Assembly (NCBI RefSeq): GCF_964213995.1
Contig: NW_027590144.1
Span: 310,001 to 374,000 of the forward strand
Length of the DNA stretch: 64,000 nt
Direction: 5' to 3'
DNA from: Mustelus asterias
Taxonomy: Eukaryota
Below are positions 5,513-61,627 of the stretch, one piece after another. The notes beneath the pieces were generated by a model that saw only the letters and a list, made by a program, of their open reading frames with translations, had not been told where the DNA came from and made no database searches. Position numbers and translations under genes: made by a program. The number at the start of each line of letters is the position of its first letter. Position 1 is the stretch's first letter.

Positions 5513-6686
5513 TCACTTGTGAACTCGCTGGTGTTTCAGCAGGTGAGATGACTGAATGAATCCCTTCCCACACACAGCAGGTGAATGGTCTCTCCCCAGT
5601 GTGAACTCGCTGGTGTGAGAGCAGATAGTATGAATCACTGAATCCCTTCCCACACAGAGAGCAGCTGAACGGTCGCTCCTCAGTGTGAATGCGTTGGTGG
5701 GACATCAGTGCCCAAGAACTTTTGAAACCACTTCCACAGTCAGAACATTTAAAAGGTCTCTCCTGGGTGTGGGTGACTTTGTGTTTCAGCAGGCTGGATG
5801 ACTGAGTGAATCCCTTCCCACACACAGAGCAGGTGAATGGCCTCTCCCCGGTGTGAACTCGCTGGTGTTCCCGCAGGCTGTCTGACCATTTAAACTTCTT
5901 TGAGCAGTGAGAGCAGCTGAACAGTCTCTCCTCAGTGTGAATGCGCTGGTGGGCCTTCAGATTCTCAGCACGTTTGAAGCCACTCCCACAGTCAGGGCAT
6001 TTAAAGGGTTTCTCATTGCTGTGAGTGAGATTGTGTTTCATCAGGCTGTGTGACCGAGTGAATCCCTTCCCACACACAGAGCAGGTGAATGGCTTCTCCC
6101 CAGTGTGAGCTCGCTGTGTAGCTGCAGTGCGGATAACTGAGTGAATCCCTTTCCACACTGAGCGCAGGTGAACGGTCTGTCCTCAGTGTGAATGCGCTGG
6201 TGGACCATCAGTTCTCTAGACCTTTTGAAGTCGCTCCCACAGTCAGAGCATTTAAAGGGTCTGTCCCGGGTGTGAGTGACTTTGTGTCTTAGCAGGTAGG
6301 ATGAAGCAGTGAATCCCATCCCACACTCAGAGCAGGTAAACGGTCTCTCCCTGGAGTGAACTCGCTGGTGTACTCACAGGTTGGATGATGTTTTAAATCT
6401 CTTTGTGCAGTGAGAGCAGCTGAATGGTCTCTCCTCAGTGTGAATGCGCTGGTGGGACACCAGTTTTCCAGAGCTTTTGAATTCACTCCCACAGTCAGAG
6501 CATTTAAAGGGTCTCTCAGGGTGTGAGTGACTTTGTGCCTCAGCAGGTGGGATGAATGAATGAATCCCTTCCCCACACAGAGCAGGTGAATGGCTTCTCC
6601 CCAGTGTGACTGCGTCGATGAATTTCCAGCTCAGATGGGAACATGAATCCCTTTCCACAATCCCCACATTTCCATGGTTTCTCCAT
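5513..6686 (-). pseudogene. C2H2 poly-zinc-finger locus Z1 (~14 fingers), multiple frameshifts
   Basis: The [12 protein letters not shown] start is at 6686. The finger array is split over ORFs 6540-6806, 6374-7093, 6041-6319 and 5475-6158, with TGEKPF/TEERPF linkers. The ancestral stop is at 5513-5515. Confidence 0.88.
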
Positions 6687-7267
6687 GGTGTGGGTCTCCT
6701 TGTATCTTTCCTCATGTATTGATACAACACGGGTACAATCTCTCCCCGCTGTAAATGCTGAAATGTTTTTTTCAGGCTGTGTAACCGGATAAAGTTGGTT
6801 CCACACTCAGTGCACTGGAACACTCTCACTCGGGTATGTTTATGTGTGTCGATGCTTTTCCAGCCACACTGATGTTTAAAATCTTCTGCGCAGACAGAAC
6901 AGAGAAACATTTCTCCTTCTAGATTCAAAGGCTGATGGTATTCAGGTCCGGATGAATTGAGTGACTCTGTCAGATATTGATGTGAAGTTTGATTTAAGAT
7001 TTCTGTCTGTAAACCCTCATCTTCTGATATCCTGTAAAAGAAGTTTACAAAATTCACCACTGTCAGTGCAGGACAGAAATTCAGAACAGACAATTCTAGT
7101 TTCTATGGAACATTCTTTCCTCCCTCATTCCCCAAAAGCTGTGAATCTCCATCCCACACACTCTCCCTCCATTCTCACTCTGCTGTATCTAATATTCACC
7201 CTCCCAATTCTCCTGAAGGTCCTGATTGAAGCTGATTGACAGATCCATGCTCACGGCTTCCTGTCCT

Positions 7268-8272
7268 AGATTGAGCGAAAAACCGCACCGACCTCCTCAG
7301 AAGACAAACACGGGACACGGTGGACAGAGTACCCTTCGTCGTTCAGTACTTCCCCGGAGCGGAGAAGCTACGGCATCTCCTCCGGAGCCTTCAAATGTCA
7401 TTGATGAAGACGAACATCTCGCCAAGGCCATCCCCACACCCCCACTTCTTGCCTTCAAACAACCGCACAACCTCAAACAGACCATTGTCCGCTGCAAACT
7501 ACCCAGCCTTCAGGAGAACAGTGACCACGACACCACATAACCCTGCCACAGCAACCTCTGCAAGACGTGCCGGATCATCGACACAGATGCCATCATCTCA
7601 CGTGAGAACACCATCCACCAGGTACACGGTACATACTCTTGCAACTCGGCCAACGTTGTTTACCTGATACGCTGCAGGAAAGGATGTCTCGAGGCATGGT
7701 ACATTGGGGAAACTATGCAGACGCTCTGACAACGGATGAATGAACACCGCTCGACAATCACCAGGCAAGACTGTTCTCTTCCTGTTGGGGAGCACTTCAG
7801 CGGTCACGGGCATTCGGCCTCTGATATTCGGGTAAGTGTTCTCCAAGGCAGCCTTCACGACACACGACGGCGCAGAGTCGCTGAGCAGAAACTGATAGCC
7901 AAGTTCCGCACACACGAGGACGGCCTCAACCAGGATATTGGGTTCATGTCACACTATCTGTTAACCCCCACAGTTGCCTGGACCTGCCGAGTTTCACTGG
8001 CTGTCTTGTCTGGAGACAATACACATCTTTTTAGCCTGTCTTGATGCTCTCTCCACTCACATTGTTTTGTTTCTTAAAGACTTGATTCGCTGTAAGTATT
8101 CGCATTCCAACCATTATTCATGTAAATTGAGTCTGTGTCTTTATAAACTCTGTTTGTGAACAGAATTCCCACTCACCTGAAGAAGGGGCTTGGAGCTCCG
8201 AAAGCTTGTGTGGCTTTTGCTATCAAATAAACCTGTTGGACTTTAACCTGGTGGTGTTAAACTTCTAACTGT
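7268..8272 (+). mobile_element. Penelope-like retroelement, 5'-truncated (RT C-terminus plus GIY-YIG endonuclease)
   Basis: DRVPFVVQYFPG, C..C, NVVYLIRC..WYIGET..LxQRMNEHR, HF..H, GLN. An 8-bp TSD cctgtcct lies at 7260-7267/8273-8280; the empty site is seen in the paralog at ~39165. Confidence 0.92.
8174..8210 (+). ncRNA. Minimal type I hammerhead ribozyme motif in the PLE 3' region
   Basis: CAC-CUGAAGA-A-GGGGCU(UGG)AGCUCC-GAAA-GC-UU-GUG: core boxes, stem II, palindromic AAGCUU helix III and stem I CAC/GUG. Confidence 0.7.
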
Positions 8273-8374
8273 CCTGTCCTGGACACAGAGAGCTGGAAAT
8301 CTCCATGCAGGCTGCCAGACAGATATATGTCTATCTGACTGGACTAACAATGTGTGGAATGTACAGACTGGGGG

Positions 8375-8790
8375 AACAATGGGTGGGGGCGGGGCTCCCG
8401 GGTCCGCGCGCCTGAACCTGGAGACGTCGCCGCGGAGCAGAGCGATTGCTATTGGCTGATTCAGGCAGGGCTCCATTGTGCCGTCACAATGACTCAGGGG
8501 GGCGTTCCCAGCCCATAGTGTCCCATTGGCAGCAATGTCACTGGTTCCAGAAACAAAACACTGCGGATTGGACACCAGCTCAGCGCGGCTGGCGGTCAAA
8601 GCCCCGCCCACCCCCACGTGGGCTCGGGTTCGTCCACATGCGGCAGATTGACCAATGACAACGCGTGGAGGACCGGATGGGCATTGGTCCTCCAGCCAAT
8701 CAGAGTCCGGGTCTTGTGTCAATTCCTGCACGGAGCTTCCTCCATTGTTGCCCAGCAAAGCTGCTACTGTTCTCTCTCTGAGTGAAGATT
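8375..8790. promoter_or_regulatory. Putative bidirectional promoter between Z1 (-) and Z2 (+)
   Basis: CpG-rich, with GC boxes (ggggcgggg ~8386, ccccgccc ~8602) and several CCAAT/ATTGG boxes. Homologous to 24305-24750 and 59020-59450. Followed by the donor caacatct|gtgagt at ~8831. Confidence 0.6.
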
Positions 8791-9135
8791 GAGCTTCAGA
8801 CAGACTAAAATTTCTTCTATCATCAACATCTGTGAGTTAAACGCTTTCTTCCCCCCGCCCCTTTCCATTTCTTTTCTCATTCTGGGGAAAAATTGGGGCC
8901 TTGGAGCAACTGAAGGGAAAAGAAGTGAATCCAGGGAGGCTGCAGACTCTGGAAAGGTTGGCCCAGGTTTCTCTCTCTCTTAAAGACATTGACATCCTTT
9001 GCTCCCTCAGCTTGACACATTTATTTGTCTGGTTAAAAGGATGGTCTGTTTCCTAATGTTGACAATTAAAGGGCTGTTTTCCCCAGGTGATGTCTGACTT
9101 TTAAGGGAAGAGTAAATTAATATTGTACACATTAA

Positions 9136-9428
9136 TCATAGAATCCCTACAGTGCAGAAGGAGGCCATTCGGCCCATCAAGTCTGCACTGACTACAATCC
9201 CAGGCTCTCTTCCCGGAACCCCTCAGATCACCCTGATAATCCCCCTGACACGAGAGTCAATTTAGCACGGCCAATCAACCTAACCCACACATCTTTGGAC
9301 TGTGGGAGGAAACCGGAGCACCCGGAGGAAACTCACGCAGACACGGGGAGAATGTGCAAACTCCACACAGACAGTGAACCGAGGCCGGAATTGAACCCAA
9401 GTCCCTGGCACTGTGATGCAGCAATGCT
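9136..9428 (-). mobile_element. HE1-like tRNA-derived V-SINE
   Basis: V-domain (ggaggaaaccggagcacccggaggaaac) and CR1-type tail. Confidence 0.88.
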
Positions 9429-9440
9429 GTATCTAATATT

Positions 9441-9747: not shown

Positions 9748-9749
9748 AC

Positions 9750-10142: not shown

Positions 10143-10878
10143 GTCCTGGCGACTTGTCCACCCTGAGCCACTGAATGGGAAAGAAGTGAATCCACTCTGT
10201 ACATTCCACACATTGTTAGTCCAGTCATATAGACATAGATCTGTCTGGCAGCCTGCATGGCGATTTCCAGCTCTCTGTGTCTGGGACAGGAAGCAGTTCG
10301 CATAAATCTGTCAATCAGTCTGAATCAGAATGTTCAGGAGAATTAGGGGGGGGGGGGGGAGGTGAGTATTAGATACAGCAGTGTGAGAATGGAGGGAGAG
10401 TGTGTGGGATGGAGATTTATAGCTTTTGGGGAATGAGTGAGGAAAGAATGTTCCATAGAAACTAGAATTGTCTGTTCTGAATTTCTATCCTGTACTTACA
10501 ATAATTACTTTTGTAAATTCCTTTTACAGGATATCAGAAGGTGAGGATTTACAGACAAATACCCAGAACAAACATCACACCAACATCTAACAGAGTCACT
10601 CAATTTATCGGGACCTGAATATTATCGACCTTTGATTCGAGAAGGAGAAATGTTTCACTGTTCCTTCTGCTTCAAAAGATTTTAAAGATCAGTGTGACTG
10701 GAAAAGCACCGAGACACACACACACCCCCAAGTGAGAGTGTTCCAGAACACTGAGTGTGGAAAGAGCTTTAACCAGTTACACAACCTGAAAATACATCGC
10801 AGCATTCACAGCGTACCTGTGGTCTGTGTGAGATTTAACTGATTGTTTAACCTGGAGAGTCACAAGGACACCCGCACC

Positions 10879-11634
10879 ATGGAGAAACCGTGGAAATGTG
10901 GGGACTGTGGGAAGGGATTCAAAGCTCCATCTGATCTGGAAACTCATCGACGCAGTCACACTGGGGAGAGACCGTTCACCTGCTATGTGTGTGGGAAGGG
11001 ATTCAGTCACTCATCCAGTCTGCAGAGACACCAGCGAGTTCACACCGGGGAGAGACCGTTCACCTGCTCTGTGTGTGAGAAGGAATTCACTCACTCATCC
11101 GACCTGCAGACACACCACCGAGTTCACACTGGGGAGAAACCGTTCACCTGCTCGCAATGTGGGGAGGGATTCACTCGGTTATCCAATCTGCGGACACACC
11201 AGCGAGTTCACACTGGGGAGAGACCGTTCATCTGCTCTCAATGTGGGGAGGGATTCACTCAGTTATCCCACTTGCAGACACACCAGCGAGTTCACACTGG
11301 GGAGAGGCCATACAGCTGCCCTCAGTGTGGGAAGGGATTCAGTCATTCATCCACCCTGCGGACACACGAGCGACTTCACACTGGGGAGAGACCGTTCACC
11401 TGCTCTCAGTGTGGGAAAAGATTCGCTCAGTTATCCACCCAGCTGGCACACCAGCGCATTCACACTGGGGAGAGGCCCTTTACCTGCTCTCAGTGTGGGA
11501 AGGGATTCAGAGTTTCATCCCACCTGCTGAGACACCAGCGAGTTCACATTGGAGAGAGGCCGTTCACCTCTCAGTGTGGGAAGGGATTCAGAGCTTCATT
11601 TGCCCTGCTGAGACACCAACACGTTCATGAATGA
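10879..11634 (+). CDS. C2H2 poly-zinc-finger protein Z2 (8 intact fingers plus a last finger lacking its first Cys)
   Basis: accATGG start of [18 protein letters not shown] linkers, open to the stop at 11632-11634. Confidence 0.9.
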
Positions 11635-11842
11635 TATTCGGGGTTGAATTTTGCTGTTGTTGTCTCTGCTCTCAATTACATCCAGGACTGCATTTTGTTC
11701 ATTCTCACAGTTAGTCAATGGGGAGGGTCAGAGGGTTTCTTTCTGCTGGACTGGCCGGTCTCACGACTTTGCCTGCAGTGGGCTGATGCTCTCTGAGTCT
11801 TGTTGCGAATACCTGGTTTTAAATTTCACAAGGGTAACAGAG

Positions 11843-15695: not shown

Positions 15696-15733
15696 GGTCA
15701 GTTGTTCAGTAAACCTTTTTCATTCAATAAATT

Positions 15734-21369: not shown

Positions 21370-21960
21370 TCACTCGTGAACTTGTTGGTGTCTCAGCAGC
21401 TGGGATGAAAGACTGAATCTCTTCTCACACACAGAGCAGGTGAATGGCCTCTCCCCAGTGTGAACTCGCTGGTGTCTCTGCAGGTTGGATAATCGAGTGA
21501 ATCCCTTCTCACACTGAGAGCAGGTGAACGGTCTCTCCCCAGTGTGAACTCGCTGGTGTCTCAGCAGGTTGGATGAATCACAGAATCCCTTCCCACACTG
21601 AGAGCAGGTGAATGGCCTCTCCCCAGTGTGAACTCGCTGGTGTCTCAGCAGGCTGGATGAATCACAGAATCCCTTCCCACACTGAGAGCAGCTGAATGGC
21701 CTCTCCCCAGTATGAACGTGCTCATGTGCCCACAGGTCGGATGACCGAGTGAATCCCTTCCCACACTGAGAACACGTGAACAGTCTCTCCTCAGTGTGGA
21801 CTTGCTGGTGTGACTGCAGGCTGGATGACTGAGTGAATCCCTCCCCACACTGAGAGCACATGAATGGTCTCTCCCCAGTGTGGTTGCGCCGATGAACTTC
21901 CAGCTCTGATGGGTATCTGTATCTCTTCCCACAGTCCCCACATTTCCATGGTTTCTCCAT
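21370..21960 (-). CDS. C2H2 poly-zinc-finger protein Z3 (7 fingers, 196 aa)
   Basis: Intact from [12 protein letters not shown] to LLRHQQVHE*. Confidence 0.9.
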
Positions 21961-22559
21961 GATGCAGGTGTCCTTGCCTCTCTCTTGGGTGGACAATCAG
22001 TTGAAGCCTCGTCCACACACACAACACGAGTACAGTCTCTCCCCGCTGTGAATGGTGTGATATTTATTCAGGCTGTGTAACTGGTTAAAGCTCTTTAGTC
22101 AGTGCACTGGAACACTCTCACTCAAGTGTGGCAGAGTGTTGGTGCTTTTCCAGTCACACTGACCTTTGAAATCTTTTCAAATCAACAGACCGGACAATCA
22201 TTTCTCCTTCTGGATTCAATGGCCGATGATATTGAGGTCCCAAGAAATATGACTCTGTCAGATCTGACGTGACGTTTGACATTTCGGCCTGTGATTCCTC
22301 TTTCAATATCCTGTAAAATGAGTTTACAAAAGTCATCAGTGTCAGTACAGGATAGAAATTCAGAACAGACAATTCTAGTTTCTATGGAACATTCTTTCCT
22401 ATTTCAGTCCCAAAAAGCTGTAAATCTCCATCCCACACACTCTCCCTCCATTCTCACTCTGCTGTATCTAATATTCACCCTCCCAATTCTCCTGAAGGTG
22501 CTGATTGAGGCTGATTGACAGATCCATGTTCACTGCTTCCTGTCCTGGACACAGAGACC

Positions 22560-24107: not shown

Positions 24108-24304
24108 CTTAAATTTCTTTAAGAGAGAGACCTGGGCCAACCTTTCCTGAGTCTGCACTCTCCCTGGATTCACTTCCTTTTCCTTCAGTTGTTGCAATTC
24201 TCCAATTACCCCCAGAATGAGAAAAGAAAGTGTTTTACTCACAGATGTTGGCCTCTTTTAGGTTGAGACTGAAGGAAGTTTGAGTCTGTCTGAAGCTCAA
24301 TCTT

Positions 24305-24750
24305 CACGCACACAAAGCCCGCGCTCTGATTGGCTGGAGGACCACGGTCTTTCCGGTCCTCCAAGTCTTCCCATTGGCCAGAGCTGGTGAGCGGAAGTGA
24401 ATCAGAAGTGCGCATGTGCGGGTTTGGGGGGAATGCGCATGTGCGGGTGTGGGGCGGGGCCCGGGACAAAGCCGGCGCACTGACCATTGTCTGTCCGGGT
24501 CTTCCAGCCTTTCCAATTGGACAACAGCTCAGCGCGGCTGGAGGGCACAGGCCCGCCCATCCCCACGTGGGGCTCCGCCCCTCATTGTCTGTCTGCGGGG
24601 GATTGACCAATGGGAACTCTGGAGGACCGGAAGGCCTCTGATCCTCCAGCCAATCAGAGCTCCCACATTGTCTGAATGCGGAAGTTGCACAATGAGCTTG
24701 TTCAACTGCTCATTCCTGCCCAGCGAAGCTGCTGCTGCTCTTTCTCTGAA
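24305..24750. promoter_or_regulatory. Putative bidirectional promoter between Z3 (-) and Z4 (+)
   Basis: Multiple CCAAT boxes, a GC box, ETS-like cggaagtg and NRF1-like tgcgcatgtgc. Flanked by inverted first exons, each ending caacatct|gtgagt. Confidence 0.7.
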
Positions 24751-25546
24751 TGAAGATTGAGCTTCAGACAGGCTCAAACTTCCTTCTGTCTTCAACATCT
24801 GTGAGTAAAACACTTTCTTTTCTCACCCTTTCCATTTTGTTTCTCATTCTGGGGGAAATTGTTGACTTGCAGCAACTGATCACGAGAAATAGAAACAGGA
24901 GCGGCCACCAGGCCCTTGAAGCCTGTCCCGCCATTCAATCCGATCATAGCTGACTGATGCCGGTTTCAACTCCTTTACTGTGCCATTTCCCCATAGCCCT
25001 GTATTCCCCGATCTATCAAATATGTATCCCCCTCCACTTTAAATACTTCTAACGATCCAGCCTCCACCACCCTTTGGGGCGGGGAATTCCAGAGCTTCAT
25101 CATCCTCTATGAGAAGAAATTCCTGCACACCTCAGTTTTAAATGACTGACCCTTTATTTTGTTTGAGACTCTCCCACTCGTGACAATATCTCACCATCTA
25201 CCCTGTCAAGCCCCCTCAGGATCTGAAATGTTTCAATAACTCCCTTGTCTTCAAAACGTCAAGGAACACAGACCTTGACAATTTACTCCCTCTTGATAGG
25301 ACAACCCTCCTATCCCAGGAATTAGCCTGGTGAATTTCCTTTGGACTATGTCCAATATTACTATATCCTTACTTAGGTAAGGGGATCAAAACTGTATGCA
25401 TTATCCCAGGTGAGGCATCACCAACACACTGTACAGTTGCAACAAAACCTCCCTGTTTTTAAACTCCAACCCCTTTGCAATAAAAGCCAAAATGCCATTT
25501 TCCTCCTTAACTCGTGTGGGACCTGCCTGCTAGCTTTTTGTGATTC

Positions 25547-26693: not shown

Positions 26694-27644
26694 CATATCT
26701 AAATAAACTACAGATTTCTCGCGATCTACCCTCCTTCTTATATCCTCAAACAATTCAAGCAAATTTGTCAAACATAATTTATCTTTCTGAGAACCATGTT
26801 GACGAGGTTTGATTATATTCAGCTTTCCTAAATGATTAGCTATTTGCTCTTTGATTATTGACTCCAGCGTCTTGCCAATAATAGATGTTAAATTAACTGG
26901 CCTCTAGTTCCCTGCCTTCTGCCTTTCTCCCTTTTTGACCAAGGGAGTCACATTGGCTGACTGCCAATCTTCTGATACTCTCCCGGAATCTAGCAAGTTA
27001 CAAAAAATTTCAACAAAATTCTCCACTATCTCTTCAGCAACCTCCATTAAAAAGCTGGCACGCAGTTCATTGGGTCCTGGTGATTTGTCCGCCCTTAGTC
27101 ACTGAAGGGAAAGGAAGTGAGTCCAGTCTATATAATCCATACATTTTTGGTCCAGTCATATAGACATACATCTGTCTGGCAGCCTGCATGGAGATTTCCA
27201 GCTCTCTGTGTCCAGGACAGGAAGCAGTGAGCATGGATCTGTCAATCAGCACCTTCAGGAGAATATGGAGGGTGAATATTAGATACAGCAGAGTGAGAAT
27301 GGAGGGAGAGTGTGTGGGATGGAGATTCACAGCTTTTGGGGAATGAGAGAGAAAAGAATGTTCCTTAGAAACTTGATTTGTCTGTTCGGAATTTCTATCC
27401 TGTGCTGACACTGATGACTTTTGTAAATTCCTTTTACAGCATATCAGAAGGTGAGAATTTACAGACAGAAATCTCAAACCAAACGTCACATCAACATCTG
27501 ACAGAATCACCCAATTCATCGGGACCTCAATATCACTGACCTTTGAATCTAGAAGGGGAAATGTTTCTCTGTTCTGTCAGCTTCTGAAGATTTTAAGTAA
27601 CTGTGTGACTGGAAAAGCACCAAGACACACACACACACACCTGA

Positions 27645-27752
<108 letters not shown>

Positions 27753-27800
27753 TGAGATTTAACTGATTGTTTAAACTACAGAGTCACAAGGACCCGAACC

Positions 27801-28643
27801 ATGGGGAAACTGTGGAAATGTGGGGACTGTGGGAAGGGATACATGTGCCCATCTCGGCTGGAAATTCATCGACGCAGTCACACTGGGGAGAGGCCCTTCA
27901 GCTGCTGTGTGTGTGGAAAGGGATTCACTCAGTCATCCGAACTGCGGACACACCAACTAGTTCACACTGGGGAGAGGCCATTCACCTGCTCTGTGTGTAG
28001 GAAGGGATTCACTCAGTCATCCAGCCTGCAGAAACACCAGCGAGTTCACACTGGGAAGAAGCCATTCACCTGCTGCGTGTGTGGGAAGAGATTCAGTCAG
28101 TTATCCAACCAGCAGAGACACCAGCGAGTTCACACTGGGGAGAGACCATTCACCTGCCCTGTGTGTGGGAAGGGATTCCGTCAGTTATCCACCCTGCGGA
28201 CACACCAGCGAGTTCACACTGGGGAGAGACCATTCACCTGCACTGTGTGTGGGAAGGGATTCACTCAATTATCCACCCTGCAGAAACATCAGCGAGTTCA
28301 TACCGGAGAGAGGCCGTTCACCTGCTCTCAGCGTGAGAAAGGATTCACCAAGTCTTCCAGCCTGCAGACACACCAGCGAGTTCACACTGGGGAGAGACCA
28401 TTCACCTGCTCTCAGTGTGGGAAGGGATTTATTGCCTCATCCAGTCTGCAGACACACCAGCGAGTTCACACCGGACAGAGGCCATTCACCTGCCCGAAGT
28501 GTGAGAAGGGATTCACTAACTCATCCAGCCTGCGGACACACCAGCGAGTTCACACTGGGGAGAGGCCGTTCACCTGCTCTCAGTGTGGGAAGGGATTCAG
28601 AGTTTCATCCCAGCTGCTGAGACACCAGCAAATTCACGAGTGA
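27801..28643 (+). CDS. C2H2 poly-zinc-finger protein Z4 (10 fingers, finger 7 with C>R; 280 aa)
   Basis: Intact [29 protein letters not shown]. Confidence 0.9.
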   Translation: MGKLWKCGDCGKGYMCPSRLEIHRRSHTGERPFSCCVCGKGFTQSSELRTHQLVHTGERPFTCSVCRKGFTQSSSLQKHQRVHTGKKPFTCCVCGKRFSQLSNQQRHQRVHTGERPFTCPVCGKGFRQLSTLRTHQRVHTGERPFTCTVCGKGFTQLSTLQKHQRVHTGERPFTCSQREKGFTKSSSLQTHQRVHTGERPFTCSQCGKGFIASSSLQTHQRVHTGQRPFTCPKCEKGFTNSSSLRTHQRVHTGERPFTCSQCGKGFRVSSQLLRHQQIHE

Positions 28644-31431: not shown

Positions 31432-31436
31432 ATAGG

Positions 31437-38599: not shown

Positions 38600-39374
38600 G
38601 TTGCAGGTGTCCTTGTGTTGCTCCAGGTTTGACCATCAGTTGAAGTCTCACACGGAACAATATTATGGTGCCCTGCTGCGATGGTGCAATATTTTTTCAG
38701 GCTGTGTAACTGGGAGACTCTTTCCACAGTCACTGCATGGGAAAATCTCAGTTGATTTTGTGTGTGTGTGTGTCAGTCCTGTTCCAGTCACACTGATGTT
38801 TAAAGACTGCTGAAGCCGATAGAACAGAGAAACATTTCTCCTTCTGGATTCAAAGACCGAAGATATTCAGGTCCCGATGAATTGAGTGACTCTGTCAGAT
38901 GTTGATGTGATGTTTGGTTTGAGATTTCCGTCTGTAAAATCCTCAACTTCTGATGTCCTGTAAAAGGAGTTTACAAAGGTTATCACTGTCAGTACAGGAT
39001 AGAAATTCAGAACAGACAATTCTAGTTTCTATGGAACATTATTTCCTCTCTCATTCCCTAAGAGCTGTAAATCTCCATCCCACACACTCTCCCTCCATTC
39101 TTACTCTGCTGTATCTAATATTCACCCTCTGATTGAGGCTGATTGATAGATCCATGCTCACTGCTTCCTGTCCTGGACACAGAGAGCTGGAAACCTCCAT
39201 GCAGGCTGCCAGACAGATATATGTCTATCTGACTGGACTAACTATGTGTGGAACATACCAACTGGATTCACTTCCTTTCCCTTCAGTTGCTGCAAGTCCC
39301 CAATATCCCCCAGAATGAGAAAAGAAATGGAAAGGGGGAGAAAAGAAAAAGTGTTTTACTCACAGATGTTGGCC

Positions 39375-40019: not shown

Positions 40020-40365
40020 ACCAGCCCCTGAAACTCCGCCCATTGTGACCCGCCACCGACAGCAGCGCATGCGCTCTCCTTCCCCGCTGAAACAAGATGG
40101 CGGCCGATAACCGGGGCCTGTTCCCGGGATAAAAGCCTTGGAGCTGTAAACCCAAGACCTGCAGGGTCTTATTCGGGCCGTGCGGCCTACAGCGGATGTT
40201 TGTGAAGCCATAGCTCCCTCCCTGCCCCGACTCCCGGCTCCATTTCTCCCGCAGCGCCACCGACTCACCCGTTACAAAAAGCCGCTCCCGCACTCTCAGG
40301 TCTCCGGGCAAAGTGACACTGCGCACGCTCCAGATATAGCATTGCGCCTGCGCAATAGGCTCCTG
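40020..40365. promoter_or_regulatory. CpG-island promoter (second type) upstream of Z5
   Basis: YY1 motif CAAGATGGCGGC at 40093-40104, NRF1-like gcgcatgcgc and tgcgcctgcgca, GC box, minus-strand donor gtgagt at 40268. Homologous to 44180-44620. Confidence 0.65.
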
Positions 40366-40907: not shown

Positions 40908-41866
40908 GACAAAGAAAATTACAGCACAGGAACAGGCCCTTCGGCCCTCCAAGCTTGCACCGACCATACTGCCTGACTTAACTAAAACCCACGACCCTTC
41001 CAGGGACCATATCCCTCTATTCCCATCTGGTTCATGTACTTGTCAAGACGCCCCTTAAAAGTCAATACCGTATCTGCTTCCACTACCTCCCCCGGCAATG
41101 AATTCCAGGCACCCACCACTCTCTGTGTAAAAAATCTGCCTCGTACATCTCTTTTAAACTTTACCCCTCGCACCTTAAACCTATTCCCCCGAGTAATTGA
41201 CTCTTCCACCCAGGGAAAAAGCTTCTGACTATCCACTCTGTCCATGCCTCTCATAATCTTGTAGACTTCTATCAGGTGTCCCCTCAACCTCCGTCGCTCA
41301 AGTGAGAACAAACCAAGTTTCTCCAACCTCTCCTCATAGCTAATGCCCTCCATACCAGGCAACATCCTGGTAAATCTTTTCTGGACCCTCTCGAAAGCCT
41401 CCACATCCTTCTGGTCGTGTGGCAACCAGAATTGAACACAATATTCCAAGTGCGGCCTAACTAAAGGTTCTATAAAGCTGCAACATGACTTGCCAATTTT
41501 TAAACTCAATGCCCCAGCCGATGAAGGCAAGCATGCCGTATGTCTTCTTGATGACCTTCTCCACCTGCATTGCCACTTTCAGTGATCTGTGCACCTGTAC
41601 ACCCCGATCCCTTTGCCTATCAATATTGTTAAGGGTTCTGCCATTTACTGTATATTTCCTATCTGTATTCGACCTTCCAGAATGCATTACGTCACGTGTC
41701 CGGATTAAACTCCATCTGCCATCTCTCCACCCAAGTCTCCAACCGATCTATATCCTGCTGTATCCTCTGATAGTCCTCATCGCTATCCGCAAATCCACCA
41801 ACCTCTGTGTCGTCCGCAAATTTACTAATCAATCCAGTTACATTTTCCTCCAAATCATTTATATAT
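40908..41866 (-). mobile_element. CR1 3' fragment truncating the Z6 finger array
   Basis: YINDLEE..FADD..LVRPHLEYC begins immediately after HTG of Z6 finger 4 in the same orientation. Confidence 0.92.
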
Positions 41867-42656
41867 ATTCTATATATCCTGTGTGAATTCGCTGTTGTGT
41901 CCAAAGACTGGATGGCCTAGCAAACTCCTTCCCACACAAGGAGCAGGTGAACGATCTCTCCCCAGTGTGAACTCGCTGATGTGCACTGAGGTTGGATGAA
42001 CATGAGAACCCCTTTCCACAGGTGGAGCAGCTGAACGGCCTCTCCTCAGTGTGAATTTGCTGGTGTAACAGCAGGTGGGATGAGATAGTGAATCCTTTCC
42101 CACACACAGAACAGATGAATGGCCTCTCTCCAGTGTGACTGTGTCTATGGTTTTGCAGCAAGTACGGATAATTGCATCCTTTATCACAATCATCACATTT
42201 CCATGGTTTCTCCATTTTCCCAACCCCAATGAGACCATAGAATCATAGAAATCATAGAAACCCTACAGTGCAGAAGGAGGCCATTCGGCCCATCGAGTCT
42301 ACACCGACCACAATCCCACCCAGGACCTACCCCCACATATTTTACCCACTAATCCCTCTAACCTACACATCCCAGGACTCTAAGGGGCAATTTTTAACCT
42401 GGCCAATCAACCTAACCCGCACATCTTTGGACTGTGGGAGGAAACCGGAGCACCCGGAGGAAACCCACGCAGACACGAGGAGAATGTGCAAACTCCACAC
42501 AGACAGTGACCCGAGCATCGAACCCAGGACCCTGGAGCTGTGAAGCAGCAGTGCTAACCACTGTGCTACCGTGCCGCCCATTTTGTCAATGGGTTTCCAA
42601 CCGGGTGGATAATTGAATCCTTTACCACAATCCTCACATTTCCACGGTTTGTCCAT
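41867..42656 (-). pseudogene. C2H2 zinc-finger locus Z6, disrupted by SINE and CR1 insertions
   Basis: MDKPWKCEDC (42656), then the SINE, then MEKPWKCDDC plus 3 more fingers (42215-41878), then the CR1. Confidence 0.85.
42237..42579 (-). mobile_element. Full-length HE1-like SINE inside Z6
   Basis: Nearly identical to 15734-16073. Confidence 0.92.
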
Positions 42657-43624
42657 GGTGCTGGTGTCCTTCTGTCTCTCCAGGTTGGATGATTAGTTGA
42701 AGCCTCATCCACATACAGACCATGGTGTGATGTTTTTCAGACTATGTAACTGGTTAAAGCTCTATCCACAGTCAGTTCACTGGAGCACTCTCACTTGGGT
42801 GTGTGTGTGTGTTTTTCAGTTCTTTTTCTGTCACATTGAATTTTGAAATTTTCTTCCACTGACAAAACAGGGAATGATTTATCCCTCCACTGTCAAAAGC
42901 AATCATATTCAGGTCATGATGAATCGAATGGCTCTGTCAGACTTTGATGTGAAGTTTAGTTTGAGTTTCCTGTCTGTGAATCTTCCTCTTCTAGTTCCCT
43001 GCAAAAAGAGTTTTAAAAAACTGCTTCAGAACAGACAATTTCAGTTTCCACGAAACATTTCTCCATCTTATTTATCTTGAGCTGTAATCCCCATCCCACA
43101 CACTCTCTCTTGTCCCTGAGCTGAAATCAAACTCATTGCCCCACCTCCACTCTGAGCTCAGCTCCCTCTCCCTCCAGCTGGATTCAGTCCTGCAGGCCAT
43201 GTGCAGATTGAGAGTACAATCAAGGAGTCAATTATTTTCCTTCCAAGTCAGGGGACGTGCAGCCCCACTGACTCTGTTGTTACCACAATAGGCACACGTG
43301 CTCTGCTCACCAATGAAACACCACAGTGACCATTAACATGGGCCTGTTCCTTGGAAAAGCTCCATTTTATTTGTGCCACAACACCAGGGGAATTACCTCC
43401 TGCACAGGCACAAAGGTATCATCAGTCACAGAAAATAATTGCAGCTGGAGTCTCAAACCTCATTTTACCATTTGGTCCCAGACATTCTCAATTCAATTTT
43501 GAAATGCAAACTGAAATCTGGCAAAGTGGGGTAAATTAAACACATTTTAATGGTCATTTTCAGAATGACTATTCCCAAGAATTAATTCCTAAGTCAGTAA
43601 ATTAAAATTCTCATCAGCAATATA

Positions 43625-43953: not shown

Positions 43954-44179
43954 AAATACATTGGGAGAATTGCTATTTCAATGGGCATTTTCACAAATGC
44001 TGTAAAATGATTTTTCAAAACAAATTAATATTTTCTTCAACGGATCATTAATAAATAAAAAGTATTTAATAAAACAACCACCCAGTGTGGGGTTCAGGAT
44101 TCTAACTCGGGGTTTCTGAGCTCCAGGAACCACTAACTGAACCAGCCGGAAATTGTCTCCACAAAACTTCCCCAACTCC

Positions 44180-44990
44180 CTCCCGGGAAAAAGCTGCAAA
44201 CCCGGGAGCTGCAGCTTTTTACTGGGGGTGTTGGGGCCTCCAGCGGGTGTTTGTGAATCCTCCCCGCCCACCTCCCAGGGTTTCCTTCCTTCCCAGAGAT
44301 CAGAGTCCTCATTGATTTGAGGCCAAAGTGTAACCTCTTATTTATTGTCCCCCTCCCCCATCCTCTGATGTGAACCATCCTCCAGTGGCTGAGCCAGGAT
44401 GGGGCCGTTAACCTGGGCCTGTTCCCGGGAGGGAGGGAGAAGCCCCGCAGCTGCAAACCAGGGAGCTGACAATGATTCTGAAGGGTTTGCGGATCCACAA
44501 AGTGTTTCCAAATCCTCCCAGCCACCGCCTAACGCTGACTCCGCTTCTCCGGGACAAACAAGCGCCAAGGACAGCAATGACACTGCGCATGCTCCATATC
44601 ACAATGCCTGCGGGCTGATTGACGGCAGCTCCGGACCAATAGGAAGAGGGGGCGGGGCTGGAGGACCGAGCCGGAGCGTCTGGTCTTCCAACCAATCGGA
44701 GTGAATGAGGGGCGGGACCTGAAGCATGCGCAGTGCGGGTAATGGCGACGGACGGACGGACGGTTTTAATTTGGAAGCGAGATCAATCCGAGGTAGAGGG
44801 CGGCGTGCGGGGAATGATAAATGTGGCGGGTGGGTGGAGAGACTTTGTAAACATGTTGTTCAAACCCAAACCCCGGAAATGAACTTCCCGGTCCCCCCCT
44901 TTGTACCAAATGGAGCGGCAGCTTGTAGTGTTAGACCCGGGCTGACTGCCGCCATTGAGGCTGCATGTGGGAGGCCGGCAGGGATTGTGA
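44180..44990. promoter_or_regulatory. CpG-island, probably bidirectional promoter between Z6 (-) and Z7 (+)
   Basis: CCAAT plus GC-box pairs (44636-44720), gcatgcgca, atggcg and ccggaa motifs. Confidence 0.65.
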
Positions 44991-45625: not shown

Positions 45626-45789
45626 TTTATGATTCATTATTATTAATTAATTACTATTCTGATTTACAGCTGTTTCTGAGTTTTAACTGTATCCTCTATT
45701 GTGAACACCGAGGCAAAATACTTGTTCAATTCATCTCCCAGCTCCTTATTTTTCATTAGCAATTTCTGGACTTTCTTTCTATTAGACAG

Positions 45790-46508: not shown

Positions 46509-47180
46509 ATAAAAGCAAATTACTGCGGATGCTGGAATCTGAAACCAAGAGAGAAAATGCCGGAAAATCTCAGCAGGTCTGGCAGCATCTGTAAGGAGAG
46601 AAAAGAGCTGATGTTTCTTGTCTCGATGACCCTTTGTCAAAGCTCTGAAACATCAGTTCTTTTCTCTCCATACAGATGCTGCCAGACCTGCTGAGAATGG
46701 GGAGAGAGTGTGTGGGATGGAGATTTACAGCTTTTGGGGAATGAGAGGAAAGAATGTTCCATAGAAATTGTCTGTTCTGAATTTCTATCCTGCACTGACA
46801 CTGATGACTTTTGTAAACTCATTTTCCAGGATCTTGAAAGAGGAATCACAGGCCGAAATCTCAAACGTCACGTCTAGACGTGACAGATTCGTGTTCCTTG
46901 GGACCTCAATATCATCGGACTTTGAATCCAGAAGGAGAAATGATTGTCGAGTCTGTCAATTTGAAAAGATTTGAAATGTCAGTGTGAGTGAAAAAGCATC
47001 AACACACTGCCACACTTCAGTGAGAGTGTTCCAATGCACTGACTAAAGAGCTTCAACCAGTTACACAGTCTGAATAAATATCACACCATTCACAGCGGGG
47101 AGAGACTGTAATCTTGTTCTGTGTGTGGACAAAGTTTCAACTAATTGCCCACCCAAGAGAGAGGCAAGGACACCTGCACC

Positions 47181-47937
47181 ATGGAGAAACCATGGAAATG
47201 TGTGGACTGTGGGAAGAGATACAGAGCCCCATCTCTGCTGGAAGTTCATCGGCGCAGCCACACCGGGGAGAGGCTGTTCACCTGCTTTCAGTGTGGGGAG
47301 GGATTCGCTCGGTCATCCAGCCTGCAGACACACCAGCGAGTTCACACTGGAGAGAGGCTGTTCACCTGCTCTGTGTGGGAAGGGATTCACTCGGTCATCC
47401 GACCTGCAGAGACACCAGCGAGTTCACACTGAGGAGAGGCCATTCACCTGCTCTCAGTGTGAGAAGGGATTCACTCAGTTATCCCACCTGCAGAGACACC
47501 AGCGAGTTCACACTGGGGAGAGGCCGTTCACCTGCTCTCAGTGTGGGGAGGGATTCACTCAGTTATCCAGCCTGCAGACACACCAGCGAGTTCACACTGG
47601 GGAGAGGCCGTTCACCTGCTCTCAGTGTGGGGAGGGATTCACTCAGTTATCCAGCCTGCAGACACACCAGCGAGTTCACACTGGGGAGAGGCCATTCACC
47701 TGCCCTCAGTGTGAGAAGGGATTCACTCGGTCATTCGACCTGCGGACACACCAGCGAGTTCACACTGGGGAGAGGCCATTCAACTGCTCTCAGTGTGGGG
47801 AGGGATTCACGCAGTCATCCCACCTGCGGACACACCAGCGAATTCACACTGGGGAGAGGCCATTCATCTGCTCTCAGTGTGGGAAGGGATTCAGAGTTTC
47901 ATCCCGGCTGCTGAGACACCAGCAAGTTCACGAGTGA
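47181..47937 (+). pseudogene. C2H2 zinc-finger locus Z7 (9 fingers) with a single 2-nt frameshift
   Basis: 757 nt from ATG to stop; restoring TG in tctgtgtgggaag (~47372) would give a 252-aa ORF. Could be an allele or an assembly error. Confidence 0.8.
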
Positions 47938-56338: not shown

Positions 56339-57517
56339 TCACTCGTGAACTCGTTGGTGTCTCAACAGCTGGGATGAAACTCTGAATCCCTTCCCACACT
56401 GAGAGCAGGTGAATGGCCTCTCCCCAGTGTGAACTCGCTGGTGTGTGCACAGGTTGGATAGGTCAGTGAATCCCTTCCCACACTGAGGGCAGACGAACGG
56501 TTTCTCCCCAGTGTGAATCCGCTCGTGTGTCCGCAGACTGGATAACTGAGTGAATCCCTTCCCACACTGAGAGCAGGTGAACGGCCTCTCCCCAGTGTGA
56601 ACTCGCTGGTGTCTTCGCAGGCTGGATGAATCACTGAATCCCTTCCCACACTGAGAGCAGGTGAATGGCCTCTCCCCAGTGTGAACTCGCAGGTGTGTCC
56701 GCAGACTCGATAACTGAGTGACTCCTTTCCCACACTGAGAGCAGGTGAATGGTTTCTCCCCAGTATGAACTCGCTGGTGCTTCCGCAGGTTGGATGATTG
56801 AGTGAATCCTTCCCCACACTGAGGGCAGGTGAACGGCCTCTCCCCAGTGTGAACTCGCTGGTGTGTCTGCAGGCTGGTTGAATGAGTGAATCCCTTCCCA
56901 CACTGAGAGCAGCTGAATGGCCTCTCCCCAGTATGAACTCGCTGGTGTGTCTGCAGGCTGGATAAATGAGTGAATTCCTTCTCACACTGAGAGCAGGTGA
57001 ACGGTCTCTCCCCAGTGTGAACTCGCTGGTGTGTCTGCAAGTTGGATAATTGACTGAATCCCTTCCCACACTGAGAGCAGGTGAATGGCCTCTCCCCAGT
57101 GTGAACTCGCTGGTGTGTCTGCAAGTTGGATAATTGACTGAATCCCTTCCCACACTGAGAGCAGGTGAACGGTCTCTCCCCAGTGTGAACTCGCTGGTGT
57201 GTCTGCAGGCTGGATAACTGACTGAATCCCTTCGCACATTGAGAGCAGGTGAATGGCCACTCCCCAGTGTGAACCCACTGGTGTGACTGTAGATGGGATG
57301 ATTGTGTGAATCCCTCCGCACACTGAGAGCAGGTGAACGGCCTCTCCCCAGTGTGAACTCGCTGGTGTGTCCGCAGGTGGGATATTTCACTGAATCCCTT
57401 CCCACACTGAGAACAGGTGAATGGCCTCTCTCCAGTGTGACTGCGCCGATGAACTTCCAGTTCTGATGGGGATCTGTATCTCTTCCCACAGTTCCCACAT
57501 TTCCATGGTTTCTCCAT
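56339..57517 (-). CDS. C2H2 poly-zinc-finger protein Z8 (14 fingers, 392 aa)
   Basis: Intact [26 protein letters not shown]. Confidence 0.92.
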
Positions 57518-59019
57518 GGTGCAGGTGTCCTTGCCTCTCTCTTTGGTGGACAATCAGTTGAAGCCTCGTTAACACACACACAACACGAGTGCAGTCTCTC
57601 CCCGCTGTTAATGGTGTGATCTTTATTCAGGCTGTGTAACTGGTTAAAGCTCTTTAGTCCATGCACTGGAACACTCTCACCCGAGTGTGGCAGTGTGTTG
57701 GTCCTTTTCCAGTCACACTGACATTTGAAATCCTTTCAAATCAACAGACTGGACAATCATTTCTCCTTCTGGATTCAATGGCTGATGATATTCAGGTCCC
57801 AAGGAATATGACCCTGTCAGATCTAGACGTGATGTTTGAGATTTCGGACTGTGATTCCTCTTTCATTATCCTGTAAAACAGGTTTGCAAATGTCATCAGT
57901 GTCAGTACAGGATAGAAATTCAGAACAGACAATTCTAGTTTCTATGGAACATTCTTTCCTCTCTCATTCCCCAAAATCTGTAAATCTCCATCCCACACAC
58001 TCTCCCTCCATTTTCACTCTGCTGTATCTAATATTCACCCTCCCAATTCCCCTGAAGGTGCTGATTGAATCTGATTGACAGATCCACGCTCACTGCTTCC
58101 TGTCCAGCACAGAAATGATAACAAATAGGAATGGCGGTTGGCCACTTGGCCTATCATGCCTTTTAAACCATTCCGGGAGATCATTGGCTCATCTACCTCA
58201 GCATCATTCTCCCCACACTAAATCCATCTCCCTTGATTTCTTCAATATCTAGAAACCAATCTCTCTCTCCTGAAAATTCTTGATGACTGAGGCTCCACAG
58301 GCCTCCAAGGTAGAGAATTCCAACGCTTCACCACATCCTTGAATCAGGAAATCCCTCGTCATCTTAGCTTTCTCTCCATTTCCCCATATGTTCCCCATAA
58401 GCCTTGACAGTCTTCTCAGTCAAGAATCAGTCTAACTCATCCTGGAATATATTTAAATGATTCTCAACCTGCAATGATCCCTGTGGAAAGGAAATTCAAG
58501 AATAACAATTGCCTGAGGAAAGTGATGACTGAAAATACATAATGTAGCTACATTTCTATATTACAAGACTATAAATAATAATAAATGTATTTTATTACAG
58601 AGTCATAAATAATATATCTAATCTGTATCATATAACAACGCTAGACATGTCTCTGTCCTATATTAATTTACTGTCCCCTTAAATGTCAGTCATCTCCTGG
58701 GGAAACCAACCCTTTAATTGTGAACATTAGGAAAGTGACCATCCTTTTAGCCAGACAAATAAATGTGTCAAGCTGAGGGAGCAAAGGATGTCAATGTCTT
58801 TAAGAGAGAGGGAGACCTGGGCCAACCTTTCCAGAGTCTGCAGCCTCCCTGGATTCACTTCCTTTCCCTTCACTTGCTGCAAGTCCCCAATTTCCCCCAG
58901 AATGAGAAAAGAACTGGAAAGGGGGAGAAAAGAAAGTGTTTTACTCACAGATGTTGGCCTCTTTTAAGGAGGAAGTTTAAGTCGGTCTGAAGCTCAATCT
59001 TCATTCACACAAGGACCAA

Positions 59020-59450
59020 GAGTCCTTCCGGTGTTCCAACACTCCCCATTGGCCAGCTACGGTGAGAGGCAGTGAGTCGGAAGTGCACATTGGCGGAATT
59101 TGGGGAATGCGCATGTGTGGATTTCGGAGGATGCGCGTTATGTGGAATGTGCGGGGCGGGGCCCGGGACAGAGCCGGCGCACTGACCATTGTCTGTCCGG
59201 GTCTTCCAGCCTGTCCCATTGGACAACAGCTCAGCGCGGCTGGAGGGCAAAGTCCCGCCCACCCCCACGTGGGGCTCCGCCCCTCATTGTCTGTCTGCGG
59301 GGCATTGACCAATGGGAACTCTGGGGGACCGGACGTACTCTGCTCCTCCAGCCAATCACAGCTCCTCATTGTCTGAATGCGGAAGTGGACAATGAGCTTG
59401 TTCAGCTGCCCATTCCTGCCCAGCAAAGCTGCTGCTGCTTCTCTCTCTCT
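59020..59450. promoter_or_regulatory. Putative bidirectional promoter between Z8 (-) and Z9 (+)
   Basis: Close paralog of 24305-24750; flanked by inverted repeats 58690-59005 and 59617-59960. Confidence 0.7.
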
Positions 59451-60952
59451 GAATGAAGATTGAGCTTCAGACAGACTCAAACTTCCTCTTGAGGCCAACA
59501 TCTGTGAGCAAAACACTTTATTTTCTCCCCCTTTCTATTTCTTTTCTCATTCTGGAGTTGAATTTTTAACTTCCAGGTCACCACTCGCTGCCTAAATAAA
59601 GATCCTCTCTCTCTGAATGAAGATTGAGCTTCAGACAAACTCAAACTTCCTCTTGAGGCCAACATCTGTGAGTAAAACACTTTATTTTCTCCCCCTTTCT
59701 ATTTCTTTTCTCATTCTGGGGGAAATTGGGGACTTGCAGCAAGTGAAGGGAAAGGAAGTGAATCCAGGGAGGCTGCAGACTCTGGAAAGGTTGGCCCAGG
59801 TCTCCCTCGCTCTCTCTTAAAGACATTGACATCCTTTGCTCCCTCAGCTTGACACATTTATTTGTCTGGCTAAAAAGATTATCTCTTTCCCAATGTTCAC
59901 AATTAAATGGCTGGTTTCCCCAGGAGATGGCTGACATTTCAGGGGACAGTAAATTAAAATCAGAAAGAGATATGTCTAGTGTTTTTATATGGTCCATATC
60001 AGATACATTATCTATTGTCTTGTAATAAAATATATTTAATATCTTTTCTTGCTGTGTAATCTTAGCTAGCTTATATATTTCCAGTCATCTCTTCCCTCAG
60101 AGTGTTGTACTATCTGGGTTTCTCTTCCTTAAAGACCAGTGAAGGCTGAAGATCATTGAATATATCATTGAGGGGACAAGGGAGTCAAGAGTTATGGGGA
60201 AAACAGAGAGAAATTTAAGATGAGGGATTTTTTCACTTCAGGATGTGGTGAAGTTTTGGCATTCTCTACACCAGAACCTTCGTCATAAAGTATGCTCAAG
60301 CAGGTGATTGATATATTTCTAGACATTGAAGATATCAAGAGATATGGGGGATAATCTGGCAGAGGTAAATCGGTCAGTGAGCTCATTGAATGGTTCAGCA
60401 GGCTCGATGGGCCGAATAGTCAACAGCAGCAACTATTTCTTCGGATCTGTGTCCAGGGCAGGAAGCAGTGAGCATGGGTCTGTCAATCAGCCTGAATTTA
60501 CAGCTCTTGGGGAATGAGAAAGGAAAGCACATTCCATAGAAACTTGAATTGTCTGTTTTGAATTTCTATCCTGTACTGACAGTGAGATATTTTCTAAATT
60601 GTTTTTACAGGATATTGGAAGAGGAGAAATCACTGACAGAAATCTCAGACGTGATGTGCATTTTGGACAAAATCACTCGATCCCTTGGGATGTGAATATC
60701 AGAGAAATGTTTGACCGGTCTGTCAACTTCAAAAGATTTTAAACATTAGTGTGGATGGAAAAGTACCAAGACACACATACGCCTGAGTGAGAGTGTTCCA
60801 GTGCACTGACTGCGGAAAGAGCTTTCAGCAGTTACACAGCCTGTAAAAAAAACATCCATTCATAGTGGGGAGAAACCGCACACGTGTTCTGTGTGTGTTT
60901 CCACGGCTTCAAAGGGTTGTCTGAACTGCAGGGATACAAGGAGACCCAAAAC

Positions 60953-61627
60953 ATGGAAAAACCGTGGATATGTGTGGACTGCGGGAAGGGATACAGAGCC
61001 CCATCAGAGCTGCAAGCTCATCAACGCATTCATACAGGAGATAGGCCATTCACCTGCTCTTGGTGTGGGAAAGGATTCACTCGCTTATCCACCCTCCAGT
61101 CACACCAGCGAGTTCACACTGGGGAGAGGCCATTCACCTGCTCTCAGTGTGGGAAGGGATTTACTCAGTTATCCAGCCTGCAAAAGCACCAGCTAATTCA
61201 CACCGGGGTGAAACCATTCACCTGCTCTCAGTGTGGGAAGGGATTTACTCAGTTATCCACCTTGCTGACACACCAGCGAGTTCACTCTGGGGAGAGACCC
61301 TTCATCTGCTCTGAGTGCGGGAAGGGATTCAGTCATTCATCCAGCCTGCAAACACACCAGCGAGGTCACACTGGGGAGAGACCATTCACCTGCTCTCACT
61401 GTGGGAAGGGATTCAGTGATTTATCCAACCTGCAGACACACCAGCGAGTTCACACTGGGGAGAGGCCATTCACCTGTTCTCAGTGTGGGAAGGGATTCAC
61501 TCAGTTATCCACACTGCAGTCACACCAGCGAGTTCACACTGGGGAGAGGCCGTTCACCTGCTCTCAGTGTGGGAAGGGATTCACTCAGTTATCTAACCTG
61601 GAGACACACCAGCGAGTTCACAAGTGA
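60953..61627 (+). CDS. C2H2 poly-zinc-finger protein Z9 (8 fingers, 224 aa)
   Basis: Intact [18 protein letters not shown]. Confidence 0.9.

Follow-up and report, generated by a model that had tools for sequence, protein, structure and literature searches.

A zinc finger gene cluster with a decayed leader and probably no effector domain in the shark Mustelus asterias

Do genes that encode tandem C2H2 zinc fingers and nothing else truly lack an effector, and how did they come to do so? The question is raised by a 64,000-nucleotide (nt) stretch of the Mustelus asterias genome (contig NW_027590144.1, positions 310,001 to 374,000; hereafter the window), in which a six-frame scan identified nine C2H2 finger arrays, designated Z1-Z9 from left to right, within positions 5513-61627. 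The fingers have a period of 28 amino acids (aa), the spacing C-x2-C-x12-H-x3-H and TGE(K/R)P linkers, as tandem Kruppel-type proteins do. Judged from the sequence, the proteins are probably truly effector-less, and consist of fingers only because the old front end of the genes decayed. The explanation favoured here, to which we attach a moderate probability, is that of an elasmobranch birth-and-death zinc finger (ZNF) family in which the start codon was relocated behind short upstream open reading frames (uORFs), genes are co-expressed in pairs, and fingers turn over and are exchanged.

In the genes of the window the first 350 nt or so of the finger exon, encoding an acidic linker and about three fingers, have decayed to 5' untranslated region. 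Transcription of both members of a head-to-head pair would start from one promoter that arose by inverted duplication, and the short uORFs would dampen translation. Unequal crossing-over in the 84-nt array and exchange among paralogs would shift the number and the specificity of the fingers; end fingers would be spared, and apparent caps would thus arise. Core fingers would most likely read DNA, and the analogy of KRAB- and FiNZ-ZNFs suggests repeats or transposons as their targets; the proteins would act by occupancy or through partners binding the fingers themselves. By the same analogy, the family probably binds repeat DNA through its core fingers.

Finger arrays and their decayed leader

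The strand order from Z1 to Z9 is - + - + - - + - +, and eight of the nine genes form head-to-head pairs (Z1/Z2, Z3/Z4, Z6/Z7, Z8/Z9), Z5 being unpaired. Open reading frames (ORFs) are intact at six loci (Z2, 251 aa; Z3, 196; Z4, 280; Z5, 280; Z8, 392; Z9, 224), with exactly the lengths given by the initial annotation. The other three loci are broken: Z1 carries at least four frameshifts and one in-frame stop, Z7 has a single frameshift, of 2 nt, in its third finger, and Z6 is interrupted by a repeat resembling short interspersed nuclear elements (SINE-like) and cut by a fragment of a long interspersed nuclear element (LINE). An exact database look-up found none of the six window proteins. Arrays and leaders are distributed as follows, F1 denoting the first finger and RVSS a terminal finger of the RVSSxLLRHQ type.

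5513..6686, minus strand: Z1, broken ZNF gene, 3-finger-period array like that of Z5
6687..7031, minus strand: Z1 decayed leader (linker and dead fingers), acceptor at 7031
10530..10878, plus strand: Z2 decayed leader, 3 coding-frame stops
10879..11634, plus strand: Z2, intact 251-aa ORF, 9 fingers, the last lacking one Cys
21370..21960, minus strand: Z3, intact 196-aa ORF, 7 fingers
21961..22310, minus strand: Z3 decayed leader, 7 coding-frame stops
27440..27800, plus strand: Z4 decayed leader, 6 stops; old frame (linker and dead fingers) best preserved
27801..28643, plus strand: Z4, intact 280-aa ORF, 10 fingers, one lacking a Cys
37757..38599, minus strand: Z5, intact 280-aa ORF, 10 fingers
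38600..39364, minus strand: Z5 decayed leader (acceptor 38957), 406-nt intron, donor at 39364
41859..42998, minus strand: Z6 pseudogene, with leader, broken first F1 (ATG near 42656), SINE-like insert and LINE cut
46830..47937, plus strand: Z7, with leader (acceptor 46830), ATG at 47181, 9 fingers, frameshift in finger 3
56339..57517, minus strand: Z8, intact 392-aa ORF, 14 fingers
57518..57870, minus strand: Z8 decayed leader, 9 coding-frame stops
60611..60952, plus strand: Z9 decayed leader, 3 coding-frame stops
60953..61627, plus strand: Z9, intact 224-aa ORF, 8 fingers, no RVSS finger

Z6 has a second F1 copy at 42215, followed by two further whole fingers before the LINE cut. Protein lengths are near-multiples of 28 because the first Cys is preceded by 6 residues, every finger takes up 28 and the last His is followed by 1; as an independent sign of a modular grammar these lengths were discarded, being pure arithmetic.

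Homology among the loci extends far upstream of the Met. A common splice acceptor lies 342-361 nt upstream of the ATG at all eight loci compared (Z6 was left out of flank comparisons), and the stretch of about 350 nt from acceptor to ATG is a decayed coding region, made up by an acidic linker and about three dead fingers. The Z4 leader, read through with X at the stops, shows this linker, then the remnants of about three fingers. Within the coding frame, leaders of all six intact genes have 3-9 stops, and 12-29 open codons are left before the Met. Pairwise comparisons revealed 189 indels in leaders, 149 of which are not multiples of 3, and none in F1. The leader is broken at 8/8 loci, while the six adjoining ORFs (590-1180 nt) feature neither stops nor frameshifts. 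Several leader stops fall at the same aligned sites in many paralogs, which suggests that decay had probably set in by the time this subfamily spread.

As stops close the coding frame of the leader, no exon reads into the fingers via the shared acceptor, and as the only long ORF opens at the linker Met before F1, the predicted protein is made of fingers only. The main ATG has A at -3 and G at +4 in 8/8 loci; one to four upstream ATGs reside within the finger exon in every leader. A start at a Met placed in the linker, in the form MEKPW, had been assigned to each protein: the position is correct for all, the motif for Z1, Z2, Z3, Z7, Z8 and Z9, but Z4 reads MGKLW and Z5 MEKLW.

The initial annotation had seen no KRAB, SCAN or BTB domain, and none was found upstream in 139 open frames of the sense strand, each 38 aa or longer, in which three trivial matches fell below the cut-off. 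Neither SCAN, BTB nor ZAD domains were found at the N-terminus of the window proteins, and no effector domain, these three included, is among the best 5 families listed per protein for 34 relatives. The window contains no in-frame upstream KRAB exon, as would mark a KRAB-ZNF, and no in-frame coding 28-aa exon, as would mark a FiNZ-ZNF, the shared acceptor being closed by the leader stops. The view that the proteins have no effector probably stands, none having been found and none being spliceable in frame through that acceptor. Contigs from 4 of 22 sequencing runs (X1, X2, X10, X19) were monitored for the predicted splice over 57280-61150 at 80% likeness; it is not among the best 15 of the 424 joints listed, in tables swamped by paralogs.

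Closest to the window genes are shark gene models. Among matches to an F1 query, chondrichthyan proteins make up 9 of the 10 that are longer and 14 of the 71 that are of similar length. A word-index search with the read-through leader gave nothing at E<=0.01. A profile of the linker found 28 matches among 1.84 billion representatives, one of them a chance repeat protein; fingers follow in frame in 13 of the other 27, nine of which have an F1-type finger behind the linker, and no in-frame finger is found in 14. Three of these nine F1-type fingers have lost a zinc Cys. Twenty linker matches were looked up and 15 are named, all from sharks, six genera being represented. The linker is mildly acidic (5-7 D/E vs. 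0-3 K/R in 4 examples), matched no Pfam family, and gave only scores under 0.9 in an Atlas search. In some members the linker, often with one more finger, is open in frame ahead of F1, which indicates that F1 became first by loss of the preceding part; a Met occurs at the linker position in only 12 of 25 F1 copies. Relatives reside on single chromosome-scale contigs in Heterodontus, Scyliorhinus torazame, Cetorhinus and Carcharodon.

That a linker of about 40 aa should be recognisable in six shark genera, and open with fingers in nearly half of the matches, could mean that the linker, or else a small upstream exon, is the true effector, the window genes being truncated competitors or regaining the segment by splicing. 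Acidity fits, FiNZ being likewise short and acidic in the sections of PMC10547256 drawn on here, and so do alternative AGs near the Met. Yet the 14 matches devoid of an in-frame finger, the negative Pfam and low Atlas results, and the resemblance of the segment to an ordinary pre-finger linker make this an improbable account.

The same AGs weigh against the favoured reading of a decayed, untranslated leader. They are weak sites in the open stretch of 36-120 nt that precedes the Met, reach 14/20 pyrimidines vs. 12-15 at the main acceptor, and an alternative in-frame acceptor among them may provide a loophole. To be set on the same side are the nature of the relatives, which are automated gene models, several plainly chimeric, and the fact that the genes are known from sequence alone and their targeting of transposons by analogy only.

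First finger, last fingers and selection

In a tree of 77 fingers, from which one stop-bearing finger was dropped, all nine F1 copies form a single branch (support 100/99), as do the five named RVSS fingers together with Z6_F2 (support 100/93). Both are therefore real lineages, and the stereotyped finger 1 of the initial annotation is an old and distinct one. The placement described for the RVSS finger was likewise correct: last in Z4, Z7 and Z8, in variant form in Z3, and one finger before the end in Z2. It is missing in Z1, Z5 and Z9, and a C-terminal cap is found in only 5/9 loci.

The two ends are not the invariant caps they had been thought to be. Comparison of the six similar genes gives an amino-acid identity of 0.73 in F1, 0.71 in core and 0.80 in last fingers, and of 0.40, 0.46 and 0.57, respectively, at contact positions, all values being from non-independent all-pairs comparisons. 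For 11 of 15 gene pairs, the two F1 copies are less alike than the best-matching core fingers. Conservation within the window is no higher for F1 than for core fingers, the outcome named beforehand as fatal to the cap proposal. Across species identity is 0.78 for F1 (25 fingers) vs. 0.60 (158), in a sample mostly fetched with an F1 query.

F1 is peculiar in other respects. Pro at +1 is found in 9/9 copies in the window and 24/25 in relatives, and W is kept. Position +5 is Glu in 23/25 relatives across eight genera, and Glu or Gln in the window; positions -1 and 6 are often hydrophobic. Helix charge is negative in 7/9 copies and never positive, vs. +0.49 in other fingers. Non-contact sites have a ratio of nonsynonymous to synonymous differences per site (pN/pS) of 0.32 in F1, from 4 pairs only, vs. 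0.60 in core fingers. The F1 motif is found in 17/22 chondrichthyan matches and in 0/58 others, from seven shark genera and the sawfish Pristis; the label shark-specific was thus too narrow. F1 would have persisted through common descent and through purifying selection acting on its scaffold, and its acidic helix would suit a weak DNA-binding or protein-contact role.

All these features, from the single branch and the retained W, Pro and Glu residues to the acidic helix, the low non-contact ratio and the confinement of the motif to chondrichthyan matches, would be expected if F1 were a dedicated protein-interaction finger, recruiting a co-repressor or dimerising in place of KRAB or FiNZ. We regard this as unlikely. 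Conservation of F1 in the window does not exceed that of the core, its positions -1, 3 and 6 vary as much, and its pN/pS estimate comes from those 4 pairs. Z4 is the likely ortholog of Mustelus asterias P0022, with a near-match over the first four fingers, but F1 differs at 3 sites between the two, fingers 2-3 being identical. A zinc Cys is missing from a third of the F1-type fingers behind an open linker, and position at the array edge explains much of the persistence of F1.

Selection was analyzed pairwise on 25 disjoint pairs drawn from 50 scored non-F1 fingers of intact ORFs; fingers lacking a Cys or broken by frameshifts were not scored, and a stop-bearing one was removed. Zinc ligands and core have a pN/pS of 0.05, and linkers one of 0.33, as expected under purifying selection. 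Position 2 is conserved, being Ser in 40/42 core fingers. Contacts -1, 3 and 6 are the most variable sites, in line with the early remark that internal fingers vary mainly at the recognition helix: pN/pS is 1.57 (50/180 vs. 89/499, p 0.007), or 2.03 under a transition bias of 3, but synonymous differences are also raised at contact codons (pS 0.24-0.30 vs. 0.15-0.18), so that the local ratio is only about 0.9-1.25. The per-position check proposed at the outset thus yields an excess (1.6-2.0) when all-site pS is used, and loses it when local pS is used. Multi-change codon counting may explain part of the raised pS; hypermutation or short conversion tracts could mimic selection, and speak against it. 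Diversifying selection at the contact residues is likely, not proven.

Neighbouring fingers can be nearly identical (Z7 F4/F5, 0 differences; Z3 F4/F5, 2; Z8 F5/F6, 2), which points to internal duplication, a process that by itself leaves end fingers as positional relics.

Further variation concerns the arrays of Z1 (5531-6609) and Z5 (37775-38365), both on the minus strand, which have a 252-nt, or three-finger, repeat period and finger types absent from the remaining window genes; similar basic fingers are found in Heterodontus relatives. Z1 near 6575 and Z7 near 47375 are frameshifted at the same TG-repeat spot, at C-S-V-C codons, by either true slippage or assembly error.

Promoters, flanking boxes and inserted repeats

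Non-coding features associated with the genes are the following.

8380..8831, no strand: Z1/Z2 CCAAT/GC-box promoter cassette, putative Z2 first-exon donor at 8831 (plus)
10380..10529, plus strand: conserved intron-end box, example copy
11645..11795, plus strand: conserved 3' box past the stop, example copy; present in 8/8 loci compared
24243..24800, no strand: Z3/Z4 putative bidirectional CCAAT cassette, homologous arms, donors at 24243 (minus) and 24800 (plus)
40050..40350, minus strand: Z5 upstream promoter, second type, CpG-rich, NRF1- and YY1-like motifs
44130..44780, no strand: Z6/Z7 CpG-rich promoter region, partial homology to the Z5 promoter
58949..59667, no strand: Z8/Z9 putative bidirectional CCAAT cassette, donors at 58949 (minus) and 59503 (plus), duplicate at 59667 (plus)

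Z1/Z2, Z3/Z4 and Z8/Z9 share a cassette in which CCAAT boxes and a GC box are accompanied by a short putative first exon. The exon ends at a conserved GT donor, no counterpart of which was seen on the Z1 side of 8380..8831. Donors are less than 1 kb apart (557 nt in Z3/Z4, 554 nt in Z8/Z9). In both of these pairs the arms of the cassette are homologous to one another, which points to inverted duplication of a half-promoter as the origin of the shared promoter. The Z5 and Z6/Z7 promoters are of a second, CpG-rich type. Both promoter types and the start of the intron have matches in gene models of other sharks, and the QHL-ISE junction of Scyliorhinus model P0088, an annotation and not a transcript, is the one predicted from window donor and acceptor. 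A ZNF143-like motif was looked for and is absent.

A second conserved GT lies about 110-135 nt past the first donor, at 8966 (plus), 24132 (minus), 58817 (minus) and 59799 (plus). Scyliorhinus model P0084 counts the stretch before it as exon, and 5' splicing may hence be variable. The end of the Z9 first exon is duplicated with its donor (59441-59555 and 59605-59719, plus strand; 115 nt, 98% identical), providing two possible donors. About 10 copies of a 28-nt tandem repeat, mostly carrying the CRE-like palindrome TGACGTCA, are found just downstream of the Z6/Z7 promoter (45007-45276). An orphan acceptor region with a leader start and no fingers lies upstream of Z3 (23003-23207, minus strand).

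The best-conserved parts of the genes are non-coding, and consist of two boxes of about 150 nt flanking the finger exon. Like the decayed leader and the paired promoters, these boxes had escaped the initial annotation. Identity is 86-92% over the final 150 nt of the intron, of which at least the last 115 nt precede all eight acceptors compared. The 3' box, +11 to +160 past the stop, is 90-94% identical, and identity drops to about 50% beyond +210. For comparison, leaders are 68-81% identical, and fourfold sites of F1 70% (147/209). Neither box matches an Rfam family, and no family was found in the window at the gathering threshold. A conserved RNA fold of the 3' box was considered, and is unsupported by compensatory changes (0/47 predicted pairs). 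The boxes may represent regulatory elements common to the genes, tracts of conversion, or a combination of the two.

Trees of the two ends of the genes disagree. Z4 clusters with Z2 and Z1 at the 5' end, and with Z7, Z8, Z3 and Z2 at the 3' end, and the genes appear to be mosaics. Approximately unbiased (AU) tests reject the groups of the opposite end (p 0.037, 0.003 and 4e-5), with p values that are optimistic, since the groups were named after seeing the trees, which weakens the case for exchange to that extent.

Flanks more alike than the coding sequence, three broken loci out of nine, and upstream ATGs in every leader would all be found in a cluster of largely neutral duplicated DNA, rarely translated owing to its uORFs and homogenised by gene conversion. 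This is very improbable, as six ORFs of 590-1180 nt remain intact next to 350 nt broken at every locus compared, zinc ligands show the low pN/pS given above, and fingers 2-3 of Z4 are identical in Mustelus.

Mobile elements are interspersed among the genes. An apparently full-length LINE lies between Z4 and Z5 (30487-34442, plus strand), with two open ORFs, one of 314 aa (GDSL/SGNH esterase-type) and one of 1011 aa (endonuclease and reverse transcriptase), and LINE 3' fragments occur at several further window sites. The SINE-like repeat, of about 300 nt, is present in at least 10 copies (e.g., 9131-9428, 37034-37344, 42243-42580, 45336-45637, 55209-55514). An insertion at 7270-8267 splits the conserved Z1 intron, whose homology resumes at 8267-8371; its frames, which match no Pfam family, look by eye like what we take to be a Penelope/GIY-YIG fragment. 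A related piece is found, inverted, at 9441-9753.

The cluster among known zinc finger families

Many metazoan ZNFs have no known effector domain. Effector-less proteins named ZNF239-like or XlCGF-like are made of fingers only, as are the window proteins, and relatives of the latter carry such database names; the window family differs in its shared dead leader, relocated start, acidic F1, paired promoters and boxes. The cluster is, on its sequence, a clearly delimited variant within a type of gene family that is common.

In the portions of PMC10547256 (Wells et al.) used here, ZNF number tracks transposon load independently of accessory domains, and the terms 'shark', 'chondrichth' and 'cartilaginous' are absent from the main text of the paper. 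According to the same portions, KRAB-ZNFs (KZFPs) of tetrapods resemble the window genes in having clustered one-exon C2H2 arrays with TGEKP-type linkers, rapid turnover, variable contact residues and interspersed pseudogenes. The window genes differ in that they have no KRAB exon, part of the N-terminal exon is dead, and the start lies in the linker. KRAB-box families are enriched among families lost in cartilaginous fishes, as stated in the relevant part of the whale shark paper (PMC8455134). FiNZ-ZNFs of cyprinid fish are also a lineage-specific expansion in one chromosome region, with a short upstream exon, a finger exon and contact-residue selection in some clades (same portions of PMC10547256); FiNZ, however, is a coding 28-aa exon, and the two families are set apart here by description, not by sequence comparison. 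KRAB-like and FiNZ proteins are treated together with TRIM33 in PMC11603059 (in part), where a transposon-silencing ZNF system devoid of TRIM28 is proposed. Actinopterygian KRAB-like ZNFs have an N-terminal KRAB-like domain, whereas window proteins have 6 residues before the first Cys.

Recent ZNF duplicates of the catshark cluster on chromosomes 13 and 17 and show high nucleotide diversity; the passage of PMC11979771 reporting them does not describe gene anatomy, and they are likely the same family. In the literature covered, mainly the main texts of open-access papers, the anatomy of this family was found undescribed; zinc fingers are not mentioned in the main text of PMC10620051. In zebrafish, tandem fingers cause ribosomes to stall and the mRNA to be degraded, according to the part of PMC11620358 consulted, and by analogy such stalling could further limit the output of the window genes.

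A bolder scenario would combine several of these elements. Sharks and rays would carry out transposon surveillance without KRAB-ZNF families, the effector having moved into the array; the acidic, Pro-capped F1, found from sharks to sawfish, would dock a co-repressor, and the two boxes would act as homology arms, or as shared chromatin or RNA signals, by which paralogs swap finger cassettes, giving combinatorial specificities. It is a speculative and unlikely proposal.

Within the favoured reading, that of a birth-and-death family with a relocated start, the cluster looks, by analogy, like the shark counterpart of the fast-evolving, transposon-policing ZNF families. Cartilaginous fishes are a gap in the account that ZNF expansions track transposons: KRAB-box families are reportedly lost, yet large ZNF clusters are there, mentioned only in passing. 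The two boxes, exceeding the coding sequence in conservation, are an unexpected feature of the family. The window defines its anatomy and three candidate routes to repression, namely F1, the old acidic linker and plain occupancy, in a family that lost its N-terminus by relocation of the start codon and still expanded.

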